DNA from: Ostreococcus lucimarinus
Lineage: Eukaryota
Reading direction: 5' to 3' (one strand)
NCBI GenBank assembly: GCA_000092065.1
Contig: CP000583.1
DNA: 64,000 bases
Made by a program: the position numbers and the translations under genes. The notes under the pieces were generated by a model, which saw only the letters and a list, made by a program, of their open reading frames with translations, was not told the DNA's origin and did no database searches. Numbering within the stretch: the stretch's first letter is position 1; the number at the start of each line of letters is the position of its first letter. Positions 1,877 to 12,033 of this stretch are shown here, in pieces.

Positions 1877-3472
1877 TCAGAGCTCTGTGACTTTCCAATT
1901 CGTTGGGATCGCGGGCTCGGCGTCGTCATTCTCTCTCCGCGCCGCGACGTCCTCGATGGGCATCTGTTCTCGCCTCACCACTCTCGGTCTTCCAGTTTCT
2001 CTATTCAGTTCGACGCCGAGACTTCTAGAGAGAAGCTCTTCACTTTCTTCTACGGCTTGAGGTTGAAGCTCGGCGATTTTACTGCGCGCCAGCTCACTAC
2101 TTTGCGTTAAGTTTCGCACTGCCCAAAGCGCCCACTCTCGGAGGTACGCCTCGCCTTCTTCGCCTCTCGTATGATTTAACACTATGGGTAATCCTCCCAA
2201 ATTCGCGACATCGTCACAGACACGCGCGCGATTGAACGCTGCGTTTCCAATAATCGCGATCAGGTCGACTCTGTAACCAGACCACGGGACTCGAGACGGA
2301 TACGTGACGTCGCTCTTCAACTCTTCCGGCACGCTTTGCTTGAGCTTCGGAGCGGCGGCGGGTCCCGTTGCCTTACTCGTCTGTCCTATACCTTCTGGTG
2401 CAGGTAACGCCGCGAGAAGCGATAGGGTAAGCCTGACGAGACCCATTGCCGCTAAACACGCGACGGTGTCGCCAGCATGAGGCTTCACCTCGCGCTCACT
2501 CATCGCGCGCAAAATACTCACGCACTCCATGAGTATCGACAGCGCAACTTTTCGCTCATCATCATCTACCGCGGCTTCGAACCGTGCGGCGACGACAGAG
2601 GTGGTATCTAATAGAAACGCTAAAACGCCTTCTGGCATTAAAAGTGGTGGTTGCTCGCCCTCGCGTATCTCGGAGTGAGGAATGTCGACGTACGACGTCG
2701 CATCTTTGTCGTTCAACAATGCAGCAATGAAATGCAGCAAAGTCGCCTGTTCGGACGTAAACACCATCTGAGGTAGATTCGTTTTGTGCGTACTTTCCAT
2801 GACCTCATTCACCCGAGAATCATCTTCGGCGAGCTCGACAAGACGCGCGCGAAGCATGGCCTCATTGAGAGCAGAAATTTCAGCACCGTTCGGCGATAAC
2901 GCGCGGAAAAGTTTTGGTAAACCGCCTCCTTTGCAACATATCGTACGAATCAGCGTCATCAAATGCGTACCACCGCCGACATTCTCGGGTTCTTCAACTT
3001 CTGTTGACGCACGCAATAGCGAGAGCCAAAAACTCTGCGCCATATCCACGACTTTCTCCGCGCGAGCGCCGTCGTGCTTCACGCACGCGTCCACGAATAC
3101 GCACGCCAATCCGTGCGTCTTCGCCCCTCCAATCCCGCGCAGTGAAGTCACGGCTTTGAGTGCATCTTCCATCGCCTCGCACTCCCACGCCTCGGTCAAA
3201 CACTCGCCATCGTCCATCCCCGCGTTGACGACGGTTTGCAACGCGAACATCGCGCACTTCGCCCGCGCCTCCTCCTCCCTCCCACCGCGTGCCTCCATCG
3301 TCCCCATCTCGCGCACGATCTCCATCAACATTCTACATCCCTCGTTTTCCCTCAACCGAGTCGTCTCCGCCGCGTTCCCCGCGCACGCGTTCCGTCCCTC
3401 TCTCGCTTCCTTCGACGCGCCCTCCGCGTCTCGTCCCCGCGCGCGCCTCGCGCACTCAACAACGCTCTCCAT
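1877..3472 (-). CDS. ATXN10: Ataxin-10 homolog (armadillo-type, Atx10homo_assoc-like C-terminus)
   Basis: 531-aa ORF with an ATG at 3472. The C-terminal block YRVDLIAIIGN...GGLPIVLNHT...REWALWAVRNLTQ resembles the conserved ataxin-10 domain. It lies tail-to-tail with the GNAT gene across a 69 bp gap. Confidence 0.5.
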   Translation of the reverse strand: MESVVECARRARGRDAEGASKEAREGRNACAGNAAETTRLRENEGCRMLMEIVREMGTMEARGGREEEARAKCAMFALQTVVNAGMDDGECLTEAWECEAMEDALKAVTSLRGIGGAKTHGLACVFVDACVKHDGARAEKVVDMAQSFWLSLLRASTEVEEPENVGGGTHLMTLIRTICCKGGGLPKLFRALSPNGAEISALNEAMLRARLVELAEDDSRVNEVMESTHKTNLPQMVFTSEQATLLHFIAALLNDKDATSYVDIPHSEIREGEQPPLLMPEGVLAFLLDTTSVVAARFEAAVDDDERKVALSILMECVSILRAMSEREVKPHAGDTVACLAAMGLVRLTLSLLAALPAPEGIGQTSKATGPAAAPKLKQSVPEELKSDVTYPSRVPWSGYRVDLIAIIGNAAFNRARVCDDVANLGGLPIVLNHTRGEEGEAYLREWALWAVRNLTQSSELARSKIAELQPQAVEESEELLSRSLGVELNRETGRPRVVRREQMPIEDVAARRENDDAEPAIPTNWKVTEL

Positions 3473-3843
3473 CTCCCCTCGCCTTCCCTCGGCTCGGTCC
3501 TTGACAGCACAGCAGCAACGTCCACCCTCGCGCCAGGGCGAAGACGCCCGCTTCGCAGTGATTCCTTTCGCGCGCCGCTTTCGTCCCCGCGTGTCGCGGT
3601 TTCACCGGCGCGAATTCCGCGTCGTCCGCCGCGCTCGCGAACGCGCTCGCCGACGCGCTCTCGCTCAGCGCGCTCGCGGACTCGCTCGCGCTCAGCGCCG
3701 GTCCCGTCGTCCCGTCCCGCGCGCTCGATCGAGCGTCGCGCGCGTCGCGCATCGACGACGCGGCGCCGAGTGCCGCCGAGCGACCGCAATCCGCGACGCG
3801 CGGTCGATCGACGCGTCGAGCGCGACGCGCGATGAGCGGGACG

Positions 3844-6194
3844 ATGCGCGTGGCGAACTGCCCGAGTCAGGTGCGCGCGCGCGCGGCGCGCGAGGGCGAG
3901 ACGAGCGCGAGCGAGCGCGATTCGAGATTGCGAATCGAATCGCGCGTCGAATCGTGAAACGATGAAACGACGAAGACTGACGGAGACGCGACGCGCGCGG
4001 GACGCAGGAACTGGCGCTGACGAACTGCGCGTTCGTGAACGATGCCGACGTCGAGGCGTGCGCGCCGTACGTGGAGATTGGCGATTGCGTGTTTTTGACG
4101 CGCGCGAGCGCGGAGGTGGCGCCGGGGGCGGTGGGACTCAACGGCGTGCAGCGAAAACAGCTGCGAGTGAGCACCGGAGACGCGGTGAAGTGGCGAAAGT
4201 ACGAACCGCCGAGCCGAGAGTTCGATTGCGCGGGAATGACGATCGAGTTGGAGTTCACGCGACCGGCGTTAGCGGCGAGTTTGATCGCGAAGAACGCGCA
4301 CGAGGGCGTGGACGCGAATTCGATGACGACGATTTTGCGTAGGACATTTAGCTCGCAGGTGTTCACCGTGGGACAAAAGGCGGCGGTTGAGTACTGTGGG
4401 AATAATTATTTGCTTAGTGTGAATCACGTCGTCGTGGAGGGGGCGAGGGAAGGCGTGACATCGCTGCGAGGGATGTTTACGCCGTCGACGGCCGTCGTGT
4501 ACGAGGCGTCGTCCAATAGCGGTATAAAAATTTTAGGTCAAAAAGCGGCGGTGATGAACACAGGGTTGTTCAAGAGTAAAGATTTTAGTTTTTCCAAGCT
4601 CGGAATCGGGGGTCTGGATCAACAATTCGAGGACATCTTTCGACGAGCGTTTTCGTCGAGAATTTTCCCGCAGAGCGTAGTGCAACGCCTCGGGATCCAA
4701 CACGTCAAAGGTATGCTCCTTCACGGTCCCCCGGGTACGGGCAAAACTCTGATCGCGAGGCAAATCGGGAAAATGTTGAACGGCAAAGAGCCGAAAATCG
4801 TGAACGGGCCGGAGGTAATGTCCAAGTACGTCGGACAATCGGAAGAAAACGTTCGTAAGTTGTTTGAAGACGCCGAAGCCGAGTACAAAGCGCGCGGAGA
4901 CGATAGTGATTTGCACATCATAATCTTCGACGAGATCGATGCGGTGTGTAAATCTCGTGGAAGTGTTTCGAGTGGCACAGGCGTGCACGACTCCATAGTC
5001 AACCAGTTGCTTACGAAGATTGACGGCGTCGACGCGTTGAACAACATCTTGCTCATCGGTATGACGAATAGAAAGGATATGTTGGACGAGGCAATCTTGC
5101 GCCCCGGTCGCTTAGAGGTGCACATCGAAATCGGTTTGCCCGATGAGAACGGACGGATACAGATCTTGAACATTCACTCGAATAAGATGAGTGAAAATGA
5201 GTTTCTCGGCGGCGACGTCGACTTGGCGGAATTGGCCAAGCGCACGGGCAACTTTAGCGGAGCTGAGATTGAAGGCTTGGTGAAATCCGCGGTGTCGTTC
5301 GCGCTGACGAGGCAAGTGGATATGAATGATATCGGTGCACCGATTGACGAAGATAATATCAAAGTCACGATGGCAGATTTCGAGCTCGCGCTGCTCGAGG
5401 TCAAACCAGCGTTTGGGGCGTCGACGGATCTATTCGAACGGTGCATGTTGAATGGAATGATTTCGTACGGAGAAAAGTACGAAAAGCTCGTCTCGACCAT
5501 GGAGTCACTCATCGAGCAAGTCAGGGTGTCGGAGAAGACTCCCATGCTGACGTGCTTGCTCGAAGGTGGCGCCGGGAGTGGAAAAACGGCGCTCGCAGCC
5601 GCGCTCGCGATCAAGTCGCAGTTCCCGTTCACCAAGCTCTTGACCTCAGACGGTTTCGTCGGTGCCTCCGAAGCGGCGAAGTGTCAAGCTCTCGCAAAAT
5701 TGTTCGATGATGCCTACAAGTCGCCGGTCTCGTTGATCGTATTGGACGATATCGAGCGCTTGCTCGAGTACGTCGCCATCGGCCCGCGCTTTAGCAACGT
5801 CGTCTTGCAGGCGCTCTTGGTGTTGCTCAAACGTCAACCCCCACCCGGACGAAAGCTGTTGGTGATCGGTACGACGTCGTTACCACTCGTTTTCGAGGAC
5901 ATGGGTCTCAACGCCGCCTTCAACGTCTCCTTACACGTTCCCGAGTTGAGCCCTAGCGAAACCTCCGCCGTGCTCGCCGAGCTCGGCGCCTTTGACGCCG
6001 TCGATCTTCCGCGGGCGTGTCAAGCGCTCCAAGCCCTCACGGGCGACCGCGTGCCGATTAAGCGATTATTCATGCTTCTCGAGATGGCGCGTCACGGCAA
6101 AGACGATCTCGGCGATTCCATGGACGTCGGCGACGGCCGTCGCGTCGTCGCCCTCGACCGCTGGGTCGCCTGTCTTCGCGATCTCGCGCAGTGA
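3844..6194 (+). CDS. NSF: Vesicle-fusing ATPase NSF. Two exons: 3844..3870 and 4008..6194, with intron 3871..4007
   Basis: The large exon carries the N-domain plus D1 and D2 AAA domains ([26 protein letters not shown], second P-loop GGAGSGKT). The large ORF has no in-frame ATG. A 9-codon micro-exon (MRVANCPSQ) joins to ELALTNCAFVND through a GTGCGC...CTGAC...CAG intron. This reproduces the conserved NSF N-terminus (M..ARCPTDELSLTNCAVVNE). Confidence 0.85.
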
Positions 6195-6947: not shown

Positions 6948-7676
6948 ATGAACGCGTACGACTCCATCGAACGCGGCGCTGCCGACGAGTGCGAACCTTT
7001 AACAGGACGACGACCACGGACGTTTACTCTCACGCAACTGCTCGTCGCGTGCGGCGCCGTGTGCGTCTGTGCGATCGGGGCGACGATGTTCGTGAACACT
7101 CACGCTCAACTGGCCGACGCTGGTTATGGTGGCGACTCGATCCAATCCTCTGGTTGTCCAATTCAAGACTGGGTTGATGATTCTTTGTGCGCGGCGAGTC
7201 CGCCCGGCCTATCCGAGTCTAAAAGCCGAGGTCGCGCGCTGCTTGGCTCGCGAAACACATCAAGTGAAACATCAATTGACACATCAAGTGACACATCAAG
7301 TGAAACATCAATTGACAACACATCAAGTGACACATCAAGTGACACATCATCAGACACATCAAGTTCCAATCAAGTGTCCATTCCGTCGTGCGCAAAAATA
7401 CCGCCGCGTCCGAAATCAAGTGATTCGGTAAGCTGCAACGGCCACGGTTGGTGTCATGAAGGCACAACGGCAAGTGGCAACAAGCCACACTGCGATTGCA
7501 ACGCTGGTTATGGTGGATCTCATTGCGAAACGAAGATTCTGAACCTGGAAGACCTCAGTATCAAAGTCGCCGACATCGAGGAGGAGATGGAGAAAATGGC
7601 TGAATCCGCAGTCGAGACCATCAAACTCGAGGAGCAACCGCTGCTGCACGAGCACGGGCACGAGCATGGGGAATGA
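6948..7676 (+). CDS. Type-II membrane protein with a Ser/Thr-rich tandem-repeat (mucin-like) stalk and an EGF-like Cys domain
   Basis: An N-terminal signal-anchor (LLVACGAVCVCAIGA) is followed by (TSS[DE]TSID)n repeats and a C..C.GHGWC..C.C..GYGG.HC EGF pattern. The C-terminus is acidic with an HEHGHEHGE tail. Confidence 0.55.
   Translation: MNAYDSIERGAADECEPLTGRRPRTFTLTQLLVACGAVCVCAIGATMFVNTHAQLADAGYGGDSIQSSGCPIQDWVDDSLCAASPPGLSESKSRGRALLGSRNTSSETSIDTSSDTSSETSIDNTSSDTSSDTSSDTSSSNQVSIPSCAKIPPRPKSSDSVSCNGHGWCHEGTTASGNKPHCDCNAGYGGSHCETKILNLEDLSIKVADIEEEMEKMAESAVETIKLEEQPLLHEHGHEHGE
7255..7368 (+). repeat. Coding tandem repeat (ACATCAAGTGA[AC]-like 9-12 nt units) encoding the Ser/Thr-rich stalk
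   Basis: Directly visible periodicity within CDS 6948..7676. Confidence 0.8.
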
Positions 7677-7912: not shown

Positions 7913-8123
7913 ATGCTGCGCGCGACGCGCGGAGGGATGGCGTGCGCGTCGATGGCGCGCGCGCGGGCCGCGCGGGCCGCGACCCCGACGCCGCGATGCG
8001 TCGCGGCGGCGGCGTTCGGACGCGGACGCGCGGGCGCGGGGAAGGCGATGACGGTGCGCTTCGGCGTCGGGGCGACGCGCCGAGGCGCGGCGCGAGGGAA
8101 GTCCGCGAGCGTGGGCGGTGGGA

Positions 8124-8165
<42 letters not shown>

Positions 8166-8770
8166 GCGACGGCGGTGGCGACGGCGCGGCGGGCGGCGTT
8201 CAAACGTTGTGGGCGGCGTATCTCAACGCGCTCGAAAAGAATCCGTTGGCGACGAAGTGCGCGACGAGTGGGGTGCTGAATGCGTTGGGTGATTTGTTTG
8301 CGCAGTTTTCGTTCGATGACGCCGCGAAGAAGGGGATCGATTGGCGTCGGGCGGGCGTGTTTACGTTTCTCGGCGGCGCGTTGGTTGGACCCGCGCTGCA
8401 CTTTTGGTACGGCACGCTCGGGAAGATTGTCACCGCGCAAGGCAGCGCCAAGGCGTTCATCAGCTTGGTTTTAGATCAAGGTTTGTTCGCGCCGGCGTTT
8501 TTGTGCGTGTTTTTGAGCTCGCTGTTCACGATCGAAGGCAAGGCGAGCGAAATCGTTCCCAAGCTCAAGCAAGATTTTGCGCCGACGGTGATGGCGAACT
8601 GGAACATCTGGATCCCTTTCCAGTTCTTGAATTTCCGTTTCGTTCCGCTGAACTTGCAAGTCGCTGCCGCTAACGTCGTGGCGCTGTTATGGAACACGTA
8701 CCTCTCGTGGGCGTCGCACAAGGAAGTCGTCGTCGAGACGGCGAGCAAAGGAAAGAAGAGTAAGAAGTAG
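7913..8770 (+). CDS. MPV17: Mpv17/PMP22-family membrane protein with an N-terminal presequence and a poly-Gly tract
   Basis: Mpv17/PMP22 signature from LWAAYLNALEKNPL through NWNIWIPFQFLNFRFVP. A (GGC)n microsatellite at 8123..8190 encodes G16. Confidence 0.8.
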
Positions 8771-8831
8771 TTCTGGTGGAGGTTAGTTGTTTTTAATACG
8801 ATATACACTACAAGCAAGCGAACAGATGAAA

Positions 8832-10037
8832 TCAAATCGTCGCCCCCGAACACGAAGACCCCGAGCCCGCGGTGCAGCCGAAACAATGGTTGTCCGCGAC
8901 GATGCGCGAGCCGACCAAGTCGTCGCACGAGTCGAGATCGAAAATTGTCTTCTTCTCATCGCGCACCGGCATGTCGAGTTGTTGGTTGAAGTCGCAGTCG
9001 TACAGCGTTCCATCCCAAGACACGCTGATCAGATCACGGCACATTACCCCCACCGAAGCCGCAACGTTGAAATTTTCGACGAGTAAACTCATGTACTCGC
9101 TCGTCTTGCCCTCGCGATGCAAATAATCGGCAAAGCGCTTGATGGGCATGTTCGTCAACGTGAACAATCGCGAGAATTCCACGCCCCAAGTATCTCTCAA
9201 CTCGCTGCGGTACGCCACCTCTAGGTTTTCTTGCGCCGGTGGCAAGAATGCTCCTCCAGGATTATACATGAGATCGAGCTCGAGCCCCGAGCCTTCGACC
9301 CCGTATCCGACGGCGTTCAAGTCGCGCAACGCCGCGATGGATCTTTCGAACACCCCTTTTCCTCGCTGCGCGTCCGTGTTCGCCTCGCTGTAACATGGTA
9401 ACGAAGCGACTACTTTGACCTTATTTTCTGCCAAAAACTGTGGCAAATCCTCCTGCCCCTCCTCGTACAGCACCGTCAAGTTGCACCTGTCGATGACGTC
9501 GACGCCGAGCGCCCTCGCCTCGCGAACGAGAAATCTAAACTGCTCGTGCAACTCGGGCGCCCCCCCAGTGAGATCCAACGTCTTCACGTTCGAAGAATTT
9601 TTCAGCACGCGCACCACGGCTTGCGCCGTCGCCGCATCCATCACCTCCGTCGTGCGCAACGGCGACGATTCCACGTGACAGTGCGCGCACGCCTGGTTAC
9701 AATACAACCCAATGTTTACTTGTAAAATCGTCGTCGGCTCGCGAATCAGCGCCTTCCCCCCTCGCGTCTCGAGATACGACTCGAACGACGGCACCCCGAT
9801 CGTGTCCAGCGCCCGTCGTCGTCGCGCGCGCTCTTCCTTCGTCAGCGCTTTTTGTCCGAGCGTTTCCAGCCGCGTCTTGGCTGTCTGAAACTCGTCATCC
9901 GTCGCCATTTCTGCGAGCGTTTCGTCGATGATGCTGTCGAAACGGCGCGCGACGCGCGCGGAAGTCGTCGAGAACGTCTGTTTGCGCGTCTTCGCGCGGA
10001 GCGTCGACGGCGCGACCGGCGACGCACGGGCGAGCAT
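8832..10037 (-). CDS. Radical SAM/Cys-rich domain protein (ArsS-like, TIGR04167-type)
   Basis: A CNQACAHC radical-SAM cluster motif, a TIM-barrel region and a C-terminal Cys-rich tail HCFGCTAGSGSSCSGA. There is an ATG at 10037 and the N-terminus resembles a presequence. Confidence 0.6.
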   Translation of the reverse strand: MLARASPVAPSTLRAKTRKQTFSTTSARVARRFDSIIDETLAEMATDDEFQTAKTRLETLGQKALTKEERARRRRALDTIGVPSFESYLETRGGKALIREPTTILQVNIGLYCNQACAHCHVESSPLRTTEVMDAATAQAVVRVLKNSSNVKTLDLTGGAPELHEQFRFLVREARALGVDVIDRCNLTVLYEEGQEDLPQFLAENKVKVVASLPCYSEANTDAQRGKGVFERSIAALRDLNAVGYGVEGSGLELDLMYNPGGAFLPPAQENLEVAYRSELRDTWGVEFSRLFTLTNMPIKRFADYLHREGKTSEYMSLLVENFNVAASVGVMCRDLISVSWDGTLYDCDFNQQLDMPVRDEKKTIFDLDSCDDLVGSRIVADNHCFGCTAGSGSSCSGATI

Positions 10038-10080
10038 GGTGCGGAGTTGTGACGTCGAGTGACTTTTTTGAGATTACAGC

Positions 10081-12033
10081 CTACGGCGTCGAGTCGGCGA
10101 CGCGGTCGTCGTCGTACACGTCTCTAGGAGCAGTGGACACGCGCGGACCGTTTTCGAGATTGAATTTTGTCTCGAGCGAGGTCTTGACCGGGGTTTGACG
10201 GCGCTTAATGAGAGCGATTTCGGATTTGATCTCGTCGAGGCGCTGCTGCGCCGACGACGGCGTCGCCTTGCTCGCGAACGCGGCGCCAGAGCCGAGATCG
10301 GTGACGCGAGACCAACTTGCGCGGGTTTGCGTCGTCGGTGTCGACGTTGGACTACCACGAAGCGTTCGATGGAAGTCAATCGTGGCGCCGAGTTGGGTGC
10401 GCCAGGCCTCGTCGGCGCTCGAAGGCGAGGGCGTCGCCGCGAGACGACCTCGCAAGTCGTGCTTTTCTATTCTCAGACGCTGCACCTCCACGTTGGCTTC
10501 GCGCTGGGCTTGAATCGAGCGCAGCACCGAGGCTTCGGCATCGGCGGTAAAATCGGCGATGGTTTGTTTTGCCGCTTCGATTTGCGCGATTTGACGCTCG
10601 AGATCGATGCGTCGACGCCGTTCCTCGTGAAGCTCGAACTCGAGCTCTTGCTTCGCCATCAAAGCAGAATTCGCGATCGTCGCTTGTTTTTGCGCCTCAA
10701 CCGCGGCATCGCGCGCAGACGCAGTGTGTTTTGACACTTGCATCGCGTGATCTTGTACTTGTTCGGCGCACTCGAAGCGAATCTCTTCTTTTTCACGCGC
10801 CGCCGCTCGTTCGGCATCGCCAATTTTTGCCACCAAGCGCTCAACTTCACCGCTCAACCGCTTGACATCTTTTTCGAAGATTTTCGCCCGATTGATCGCA
10901 TCTGTGCGCTCTTGAAGTGCGATGGCGAGCTCTTTCGAGCTCGTGTGTTCCCGCAAGGTGACGCCATCGATCATTTGCTCCAGTTCAGCGTTACGCGCCT
11001 CCTTTGCAAAGCTCTCTTCCGTTTTCTTCAAAAGCGTCTCCGTCAACCGCACGTTTTCGTCCCTCGCCGCGCGCAAGTGCGCCAGCGTCAACCTTAAATG
11101 TTCATCTGCGGTAGATTTCGCGGAATTTATCACCGCAATCTCACGTCTGAGCTCGAGGTTTTCTTGTACTAACGCCGACTCGGACACCTCGCCGCTTCCC
11201 AACGCGGAGACTTCATTCTTAGCGTGTGCCGCCATGATCTCCGAAGTCTCGGCTCTTCGCATCGCCTTATCACGTTCTTCGCTTGCAATTTGTAAATCTT
11301 TGCGCAGAGCTTCGTTTTCTCGACCCATGACTTCCTCGAGCGAACGATAGCGTTCGAGCTTGAGTCTCTGCTCATCGTAATCGGACCGAAGCTGCGCCGC
11401 GCGTTCTTGCTGAAACTCCAAATTCTTCGTCAGATTCCGCACCTTGATCTCGTAAGACACCGTTGAGTTATCGAAATATCCCTCCTCTGTTGTTCGGCCG
11501 CTTTTTGCCGCCCCCTCGCGCGCTCTCGCCGCCTCTAATTCCGCCTCCGCCTCGCGCAACGCGTCCGAAAGCAACAGATTCTCCTCACGAAGATCCCTGA
11601 CCAACGCGCTCGACGACCCCGACGTCGACGCCGTCGGCGTCATCCTGGCATCACGATCCAATCGTGCGCGCAGACCTTCCCCCCCCCGCGCGCACATCGC
11701 CTCCACGAGCGCCTCCGCCTCGCGCGCGTCTCTCGCCCGCAACCGCATCGCCTTCGTCTCCCCCACCACCACCACCCCGAGCTCCACGTCCGCGCCTCGC
11801 GTCCGCGCGCGCGCGACGCTCGACAGCGGAAACTTCCCCAGCATCGCTCGTCGCGTTCGCGCGCCCGCGCGTCCGCGCGCGCCGTCGTCGTCGTCGATTA
11901 ATCGATCGATGCGCAACCCGCGCGCGGAGACGTCGACCCGCGCGACGACGCCGTCGCCGCGCGCGCCGTCGCCCAGGACGCGCACGTCGAACGTCGCGCT
12001 GTCGTCCTCGCCGCGCGTCGCCGCGGCGGGCAT
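10081..12033 (-). CDS. Long coiled-coil protein (myosin-tail or trichohyalin-like, E/R/A/L-rich heptads). The start is uncertain (ATG at 12033 or 11844)
   Basis: The track ORF extends to 13110, but its first ~360 codons are a low-complexity S/A/R translation. That stretch overlaps a better plus-strand gene. Coiled-coil content begins after the ATG at 11844. Confidence 0.45.
   Translation of the reverse strand: MPAAATRGEDDSATFDVRVLGDGARGDGVVARVDVSARGLRIDRLIDDDDGARGRAGARTRRAMLGKFPLSSVARARTRGADVELGVVVVGETKAMRLRARDAREAEALVEAMCARGGEGLRARLDRDARMTPTASTSGSSSALVRDLREENLLLSDALREAEAELEAARAREGAAKSGRTTEEGYFDNSTVSYEIKVRNLTKNLEFQQERAAQLRSDYDEQRLKLERYRSLEEVMGRENEALRKDLQIASEERDKAMRRAETSEIMAAHAKNEVSALGSGEVSESALVQENLELRREIAVINSAKSTADEHLRLTLAHLRAARDENVRLTETLLKKTEESFAKEARNAELEQMIDGVTLREHTSSKELAIALQERTDAINRAKIFEKDVKRLSGEVERLVAKIGDAERAAAREKEEIRFECAEQVQDHAMQVSKHTASARDAAVEAQKQATIANSALMAKQELEFELHEERRRRIDLERQIAQIEAAKQTIADFTADAEASVLRSIQAQREANVEVQRLRIEKHDLRGRLAATPSPSSADEAWRTQLGATIDFHRTLRGSPTSTPTTQTRASWSRVTDLGSGAAFASKATPSSAQQRLDEIKSEIALIKRRQTPVKTSLETKFNLENGPRVSTAPRDVYDDDRVADSTP

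Follow-up and report, generated by a model that had tools for sequence, protein, structure and literature searches.

To our knowledge, the radical S-adenosylmethionine (SAM) enzyme ArsS, which creates the initial carbon-arsenic-sugar bond in arsenosugars, carries out the only step of arsenosugar biosynthesis that has been defined both genetically and biochemically, and it has been studied in a cyanobacterium only. The arsenosugars and arsenolipids that make up most of the arsenic in seafood, and that drive the marine arsenic cycle, come mainly from algae. In Synechocystis, SsArsS and SsArsM together carry out the opening steps of arsenosugar synthesis (PMC8552651), and the bacterial enzyme adenosylates dimethylarsenite (DMAs(III)) to 5'-deoxy-5'-dimethylarsinoyl-adenosine (DDMAA) in a redox-neutral radical reaction that proceeds without an external reductant (PMC13598754). 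Here we analyzed a 64,000-nucleotide stretch of the Ostreococcus lucimarinus genome (contig CP000583.1; hereafter the window), which carries a gene for an ArsS-like protein of 401 amino acids (aa). This protein has the Radical_SAM plus DUF3641 architecture of the ArsS family, whose prototype is SsArsS of Synechocystis sp. PCC 6803, together with the CX3CX2C motif and the C-terminal HC.GCTAG.GSS[C/U].GA motif of that family. Based on sequence comparisons, we put the probability that the gene encodes the O. lucimarinus ortholog of ArsS, and thus a radical SAM enzyme of arsenosugar biosynthesis, at roughly 80%.

Family assignment and gene model

The window protein matched the NCBIfam model TIGR04167 ('arsenosugar biosynthesis radical SAM (seleno)protein ArsS') at 430.2 bits (E = 3.9e-129) across model positions 4-302 of 303. 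TIGR04167 is an equivalog model with a curated cut-off of 300 bits, which the match exceeded by 130 bits, and the second-ranked NCBIfam family reached only 36 bits. In an alignment of 33 eukaryotic and 80 bacterial sequences, 68 columns reached a conservation of at least 97%. O. lucimarinus retains every one of them, and a single core column, L111, told the eukaryotic and bacterial sequences apart at the 90%/10% level. The three cysteines of the CX3CX2C motif (C113, C117 and C120), which are the predicted ligands of the SAM-cleaving [4Fe-4S] cluster, were kept in every aligned sequence (33/33 eukaryotic and 80/80 bacterial; 113/113 in total). The DUF3641 domain contributes five further cysteines (C333, C348, C385, C388 and C396), present in 80/80 bacteria and 33/33 eukaryotes except for C396, which was found in 31/33 eukaryotes, the other two being truncated models. 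Judged by profile and residue conservation, the window protein is a genuine member of the TIGR04167/ArsS family, an assignment that is already obtainable from public profile models. The Joint Genome Institute (JGI) name for the O. lucimarinus protein is 'radical SAM/Cys-rich protein', and the Chlorella vulgaris ortholog is already called 'Arsenosugar biosynthesis radical...' in UniRef.

These results agree with the initial annotation of the locus, which was made from the letters of the sequence and described an intronless ArsS-like gene whose product combines a CNQACAHC radical SAM motif with a Cys-rich C-terminal tail. Motif and tail are both present (Table 1), hidden Markov model (HMM) searches matched TIGR04167, Radical_SAM and DUF3641 alike, and the coding sequence is one uninterrupted open reading frame (ORF) of 401 codons.

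Table 1. Features of the ArsS gene and its product, with coordinates given in the window
Feature	Position	Strand	Residues (aa)	Remarks
Complete single-exon ArsS coding sequence	8832..10037	(-)		401 aa + TGA; ORF list, sequence, TIGR04167
N-terminal leader MLARASPVAPSTLRAKTRKQTFSTTSARVARR, putative organelle transit peptide	9942..10037	(-)	1-32	Missing from XP_001416889.1
Three-helix N-terminal module	9786..9941	(-)	33-84	Seen only in eukaryotic sequences
ArsS core (TIGR04167)	8841..9743	(-)	99-399	
Radical SAM domain (Pfam PF04055)	9297..9719	(-)	107-247	
CX3CX2C motif CNQACAHC	9678..9701	(-)	113-120	C113, C117, C120
DUF3641 C-terminal domain (Pfam PF12345)	8841..9245	(-)	265-399	E = 6.4e-54, positions 1-134 of 134
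C-terminal motif HCFGCTAGSGSSCSGA	8841..8888	(-)	384-399	

The ORF is intact from its ATG (10035-10037, in the context gcACCATGc) to its TGA stop (8832-8834), and its GC content matches that of the remaining window. End-to-end alignment with homologs showed no gaps that would suggest introns, which are missing from most Ostreococcus genes. The corresponding RefSeq protein, XP_001416889.1 (358 aa; A4RU34, O. lucimarinus CCE9901), sits in the 90% cluster of the window protein and is identical to it from Met44 onward. Positions 9909-10037 (-) are missing from it, and with them the whole 32-aa leader and the opening 11 residues of the conserved module behind it. Met1 is read as the true start because residues 35-41 (S35, T40, L41) belong to a block conserved across all algal lineages that precedes Met44, and the ATG of Met1 is the only one upstream of this block in frame. 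We regard the RefSeq model as N-terminally truncated and the 401-aa ORF from Met1 as the better model.

Eukaryotic features, distribution and origin

Next to the catalytic core, the protein carries two N-terminal regions, a leader and a module. The module (consensus GSLIPETL..EM..D.EFQ....L...GQ.ALT.EER.RRRRALD.LGVP) was present in every algal ArsS sequence examined, with six positions invariant across 54 algal sequences (S35, G61, E69, R73, R75 and L77) and helices predicted at residues 37-46, 48-60 and 62-79 (predicted local distance difference test, pLDDT, about 85). None of the 12,776 ORF fragments derived from the 80 closest bacterial loci matched an HMM of the module, and a phmmer search of 1.84 billion representatives returned 130 matches, all of which resembled the N-terminus or the first exon of an ArsS. 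By these searches, and within the set of sequences examined, the module was added in eukaryotic ArsS only. At some bacterial loci, tblastn alignments seemed to extend into aa 31-60, but these were rejected as a bacterial counterpart after they failed in both alignment and HMM search. In many intron-bearing algae, the end of the module appears to lie at the first exon boundary or close to it, to judge from gene-caller read-through that starts right after '...PSF..L[KR]V'.

The leader is basic and rich in Ser, Thr, Ala and Arg, has zero acidic residues and is predicted to be disordered (AlphaFold pLDDT <50 for residues 1-30). Leaders were found in most full-length orthologs, varying in length and sequence with a common composition (Ala 15%, Arg 13%, Ser 11% and Asp+Glu 5.7%). 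Eight diatom-type orthologs carry a hydrophobic signal peptide followed by Phe or Trp right after a small-x-small site, an arrangement that is a hallmark of heterokont plastid import; these bipartite signals resemble ASAFAP. The leader fits organelle import and ArsS probably works in an organelle, for which the plastid is our favored candidate because the diatom-type orthologs bear this import signature. A stromal-peptidase-like motif (V/I-x-A/C followed by A) occurred in 16/73 green-lineage leaders compared to 11.4 +/- 3.0 in shuffles; this enrichment is not significant and weakens the plastid reading, and the motif was dropped as an argument for chloroplast targeting. The initial annotation had noted a presequence-like N-terminus, which the basic, disordered leader bears out, and had suggested retargeting to an organelle, which the leader and the diatom signals make plausible by inference.

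To describe the distribution of the gene, we used the 120 nearest homologs from a search of 5.8 billion proteins and a scan of bacteria and archaea with one genome per species. The scan yielded at least 600 relatives, and we analyzed the best 80 of them. The closest orthologs came from other Ostreococcus-like clades (79-86% identical), followed by Micromonas-like sequences and Bathycoccus (65-72%). Orthologs 55-65% identical were found in green and streptophyte algae (Pyramimonas, Chlorokybus, Klebsormidium, Mesostigma, Coccomyxa, Chlorella, Volvox, Bryopsis, Ostreobium and Trebouxia), in the xanthophyte Tribonema, in the diatoms Cylindrotheca and Nitzschia, in the haptophyte Haptolina and in the cryptophyte Baffinella. 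The gene spans 3.3 kb in Coccomyxa and 7.4 kb in Tribonema, so these two orthologs contain introns. As far as sequence identity can tell, ArsS is a pan-algal ortholog shared by nearly all sampled algae, and the idea that the gene is a peculiarity of this genome did not hold: the ortholog is pan-algal, syntenic in Bathycoccus and monophyletic.

Position 396 varies among these orthologs. O. lucimarinus (codon TGT at 8850-8852, (-)) and all 80 bacteria examined have Cys at this site, and in Cylindrotheca closterium (CAKOGP040002091.1, locus 9502-9630) a TGA codon is aligned with Cys396. The diatom sequence reads GSS-TGA-QGATAEE-TAG, with the conserved QGATAEE in frame before the stop, and 12 of the 120 closest homolog models, including one from a haptophyte, end exactly at this position. 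The diatom and haptophyte orthologs are probably selenocysteine forms annotated as truncated. Because an Rfam search of the 840 nt downstream of the diatom TGA gave no match to a selenocysteine insertion sequence (SECIS) at E <= 1, this interpretation draws on the in-frame conserved continuation only.

The best 80 bacterial relatives were 44-59% identical to the window protein (best tblastn segment). They were mostly from Myxococcota, Deltaproteobacteria and other Pseudomonadota, and included Myxococcota, Bdellovibrionota, Acidobacteriota, Nitrospirota, Planctomycetota, Binatia, Bacteroidota, beta- and gamma-proteobacteria, and marine Synechococcus and Prochlorococcus. We built a distance-based neighbor-joining (NJ) tree from 311 core columns of 33 eukaryotic and the 80 closest bacterial sequences, with 200 bootstraps. 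All 33 eukaryotic sequences formed a single clade (96.5% bootstrap) on a bacterial backbone with supports below 40%. Any bacterial acquisition would be ancient and single, because the ortholog is pan-algal, in a gene order shared with Bathycoccus, and monophyletic. From this tree, with its limited sampling and distance method, we conclude that one ancient acquisition of a bacterial-type gene, common to all sampled algae, is the likely history.

The donor is a separate question. The named eukaryotic matches among the top 120 all came from photosynthetic lineages, which, together with the plastid-type targeting signals on the diatom orthologs and the existence of arsM-arsS clusters in cyanobacteria, would suit arrival from the cyanobacterial plastid ancestor by endosymbiotic gene transfer. 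The trees, in which five cyanobacterial sequences were sampled, make this route rather unlikely. Four marine picocyanobacteria clustered with gamma- and beta-proteobacteria (98%), apart from the eukaryotes, and the ArsS of Pseudanabaena shared only 47% identity with the O. lucimarinus core, compared to a mean of 54% and a maximum of 59% for the 80 closest bacteria. When the tree was rooted on Pseudanabaena, the sister of the eukaryotes was a small mixed group of proteobacterial, Bdellovibrio and planctomycete sequences, and it included a picocyanobacterium in just 17% of replicates. The earlier proposal of an acquired bacterial or cyanobacterial enzyme stands for its first half, in the form of a bacterial-type gene acquired once and long ago. 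Its second half found no backing, since the eukaryotes were neither nested in nor placed beside the five cyanobacteria in the NJ trees, and a cyanobacterial origin of algal ArsS is not supported by these comparisons.

Proposed reaction, substrate and genomic context

By analogy with the bacterial enzyme, from which we infer the substrate in eukaryotes, the most likely function of the protein is SAM-dependent adenosylation of dimethylarsenite to DDMAA, the arsenosugar precursor. The initial annotation left the function as unknown, which was too cautious: the family reaction is defined (PMC13598754, PMC8552651) and every conserved residue is kept. In the proposed pathway, arsenate would enter the cell as a phosphate mimic and be reduced, after which an ArsM/AS3MT methyltransferase, encoded elsewhere in the genome, would methylate the arsenic twice to give DMAs(III). 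ArsS, made with a putatively cleavable N-terminal leader and probably acting in an organelle, with the plastid favored, would use the [4Fe-4S]+ cluster on C113/C117/C120 to cleave SAM reductively to a 5'-deoxyadenosyl radical. This radical would add to the arsenic atom, and the resulting arsenic-centered radical would give an electron back to the cluster, so that formation of DDMAA would be redox-neutral. Later enzymes would strip the adenine and attach aglycones, yielding arsenosugars and arsenosugar lipids.

Partner enzymes and products are on record for the sister species, O. tauri, which carries two AS3MT genes (PMC5398495 supplement) and is counted among the arsenosugar-containing microalgae in a review (PMC10456119), and a literature search for an arsenite methyltransferase of O. 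lucimarinus found nothing. In bacteria, an ArsM-like gene lies on the same strand within 5 kb of arsS, and mostly adjacent to it, at 22 of the 80 closest loci, from many phyla, and the best NCBIfam matches of these neighbors are arsenite methyltransferase models, a linkage that ties ArsS to arsenic methylation.

Several observations weigh against an arsenosugar function or against parts of the scheme above. The ArsM-like bacterial neighbors score below the curated ArsM cut-offs, and the other 58 of the 80 closest loci have no ArsM-like gene within 5 kb. In the 64-kb window, no ArsM was found by regular-expression search or by tblastn with 11 bacterial ArsM-like proteins (best E = 0.14), as the initial annotation had anticipated in reporting no adjacent arsM-like partner, and the neighborhood of ArsS, out to 8-10 kb, was free of methyltransferase genes in Bathycoccus, Cylindrotheca, Coccomyxa, Nitzschia and Tribonema as well. 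Operon linkage is commonly lost for eukaryotic genes, and the absence of ArsM beside algal ArsS is expected because these genes are eukaryotic. Two features of the eukaryotic proteins also count on this side: the N-terminal module has no assigned role, and some stramenopile- and haptophyte-like orthologs have mitochondrial-looking leaders without a signal peptide, because of which the location of ArsS may differ between lineages. The only non-marine cyanobacterial ArsS compared, that of Pseudanabaena, shares just the 47% core identity given above. Finally, the literature searched, which did not cover the founding paper (Xue et al. 2019), contained no treatment of an algal ArsS and no biochemical or genetic test of a eukaryotic one.

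Some of these observations could also be read as signs of an enzyme that performs the same chemistry, addition of a 5'-deoxyadenosyl radical, on another substrate in eukaryotes, in a housekeeping and probably plastid pathway with arsenic as at most a side substrate. Such a role would be in keeping with the persistence of the gene across essentially all algal lineages sampled, among them green algae that live in fresh water, on land or in lichens (such as Klebsormidium, Coccomyxa, Trebouxia and Chlorella; 55-65% identical), with the extra conserved three-helix module that was not found in bacteria, and with the rarity of arsM linkage (0/6 algal genomes in the nearby regions examined, and only 22/80 nearest bacterial loci), although missing operon linkage is normal in eukaryotes. 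We consider it quite improbable, given that L111 alone separates the eukaryotic from the bacterial core with the active-site make-up unchanged, that the equivalog cut-off is cleared by the wide margin noted above, and that algae are classic arsenosugar producers, among them O. tauri and freshwater Chlamydomonas (PMC11009773). A bolder version, and equally a long shot, is that eukaryotic ArsS is not primarily an arsenic enzyme and serves as a plastid housekeeping adenosyl-transferase on another nucleophile, or else that the module docks ArsS to a lipid/phytol pathway, making arsenosugar lipids deliberate, phosphate-sparing membrane lipids. Its basis is the module and leader of the eukaryotic enzyme and the retention of the gene in nearly all algae whatever their arsenic exposure; if true, the Cys/Sec switch at residue 396 would tune substrate capture. 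Adenosylation of dimethylarsenite remains our preferred reading.

The gene lies on a eukaryotic nuclear chromosome between an Mpv17 gene and a coiled-coil gene, as first described. The plus-strand neighbor (7913-8770) encodes an Mpv17/PMP22 protein (Pfam), and the upstream minus-strand neighbor, whose stop is at 10081, is a long, coiled-coil-like ORF rich in Glu, Ala, Arg and Leu that has no Pfam match. Other genes around ArsS are likewise eukaryotic (ribosomal L30, Ist1, HIT/DcpS, a CDC48-like AAA ATPase, ataxin-10, TCP1 and WD40/IFT). The identical 401-aa protein was called on hundreds of marine metagenome contigs, and six independent eukaryotic contigs, the longest of 966 kb (some about 956 kb), carried the identical gene in the same neighborhood. 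The order Sel1-DAO-HIT-x-ArsS-Mpv17-AAA-Atx10-GNAT (acetyltransferase)-TCP1 is common to Bathycoccus prasinos, and because gene order matches in both, ArsS was in place before the Ostreococcus/Bathycoccus split. The chance that the gene is a bacterial contaminant, reached Ostreococcus recently by horizontal transfer or is a relic in decay, as an intronless member of an overwhelmingly bacterial family might suggest, is practically nil in view of the six contigs, the synteny with Bathycoccus, the monophyly of the eukaryotes, the intron-bearing orthologs in Coccomyxa and Tribonema, the matching GC content and the intact conserved residues, and we rejected it.

Genes at this locus are tightly packed. 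Only 43 nt (10038-10080) separate the ArsS ATG from the stop codon of the upstream coiled-coil gene, and the stop codons of the convergent ArsS and Mpv17 genes are 61 nt apart (8771-8831), so the ArsS promoter and 5' untranslated region (UTR) must overlap the upstream gene, and the 3' UTRs of ArsS and Mpv17 must overlap each other. In the N-terminal part of the Mpv17-like protein, a (CGG)n tract of about 25 copies (8125-8198) encodes a long poly-Gly run. Within the plus-strand ORF at 6948-7676, a 12/36-nt tandem repeat (7255-7376; about 10 or 3.3 copies) encodes TSSD/TSSE units in a small Cys-rich, EGF-like protein. Gene-call spacing around this repeat varies between two population contigs, which suggests that it is length-polymorphic.

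Significance and comparison with known systems

Ostreococcus is a very small, tractable marine alga with a clear single-copy ArsS ortholog, and it offers a handle on arsenosugar synthesis in eukaryotes. The finding of ArsS in O. lucimarinus leaves the picture of the pathway unchanged, and the new points are modest: a corrected start, a likely organelle leader, a eukaryote-only module, alternation of Cys and Sec, and the lack of support for a cyanobacterial origin.

Compared with bacterial ArsS (47-59% identity), the O. lucimarinus enzyme is nuclear-encoded, unlinked to arsM, and extended by a 32-aa leader and a 52-aa module. The cyanobacterial arsM-arsS cluster on plasmid pPg_02 of Pseudanabaena galeata is expected to follow the same logic, with ArsM making DMAs(III) and ArsS adenosylating it. 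There the two genes are adjacent and co-oriented, in contrast to O. lucimarinus, where no ArsM lies in the 64 kb around ArsS. The plasmid cluster is annotated as arsM-TVP38/TMEM64-arsS (2992-6077 of the locus), a gene for a TVP38-family membrane protein separating arsM from arsS, and it adjoins a mercuric reductase gene. Among plasmid records with an ArsS match, 49/54 were from Burkholderia, mostly from the rice pathogen B. glumae, and plasmid-borne arsS is thus common in that genus.

At the level of structure, the AlphaFold model of the window protein is confident (pLDDT 85.6, predicted template modeling score 0.86) and shows an alternating strand/helix partial barrel of the radical SAM type followed by the C-terminal domain. 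No ArsS structure was found in the PDB by sequence (best match SpeY, 7wzv, E = 5.9e-06) or by fold search. The best fold matches to the model were SPASM/twitch radical SAM enzymes (SuiB 5v1t, BlsE 7vob, SkfB 6efn, EpeE 8ai6 and MoaA 1tv7), which have auxiliary clusters. Like the ArsS model, they consist of a partial triosephosphate isomerase (TIM) barrel and a Cys-bearing C-terminal extension, but they are only 13-16% identical to it, with template modeling (TM) scores of 0.4-0.5, and have other substrates and chemistry. For DUF3641 and its five invariant cysteines, the most likely role is to bind an auxiliary Fe-S cluster, to present the arsenic substrate in thiol-bound form, or both.

In its chemistry, ArsS can be set beside ArsL of arsinothricin biosynthesis, whose model was not among the NCBIfam matches of the window protein. 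Both are radical SAM enzymes that use SAM and trivalent arsenic to form a C-As bond, and both are paired with ArsM (PMC8552651; bioRxiv 10.1101/2024.02.01.577332). ArsL differs in being a non-canonical enzyme of a different family, and in transferring a 3-amino-3-carboxypropyl group in place of the 5'-deoxyadenosyl group transferred by ArsS.

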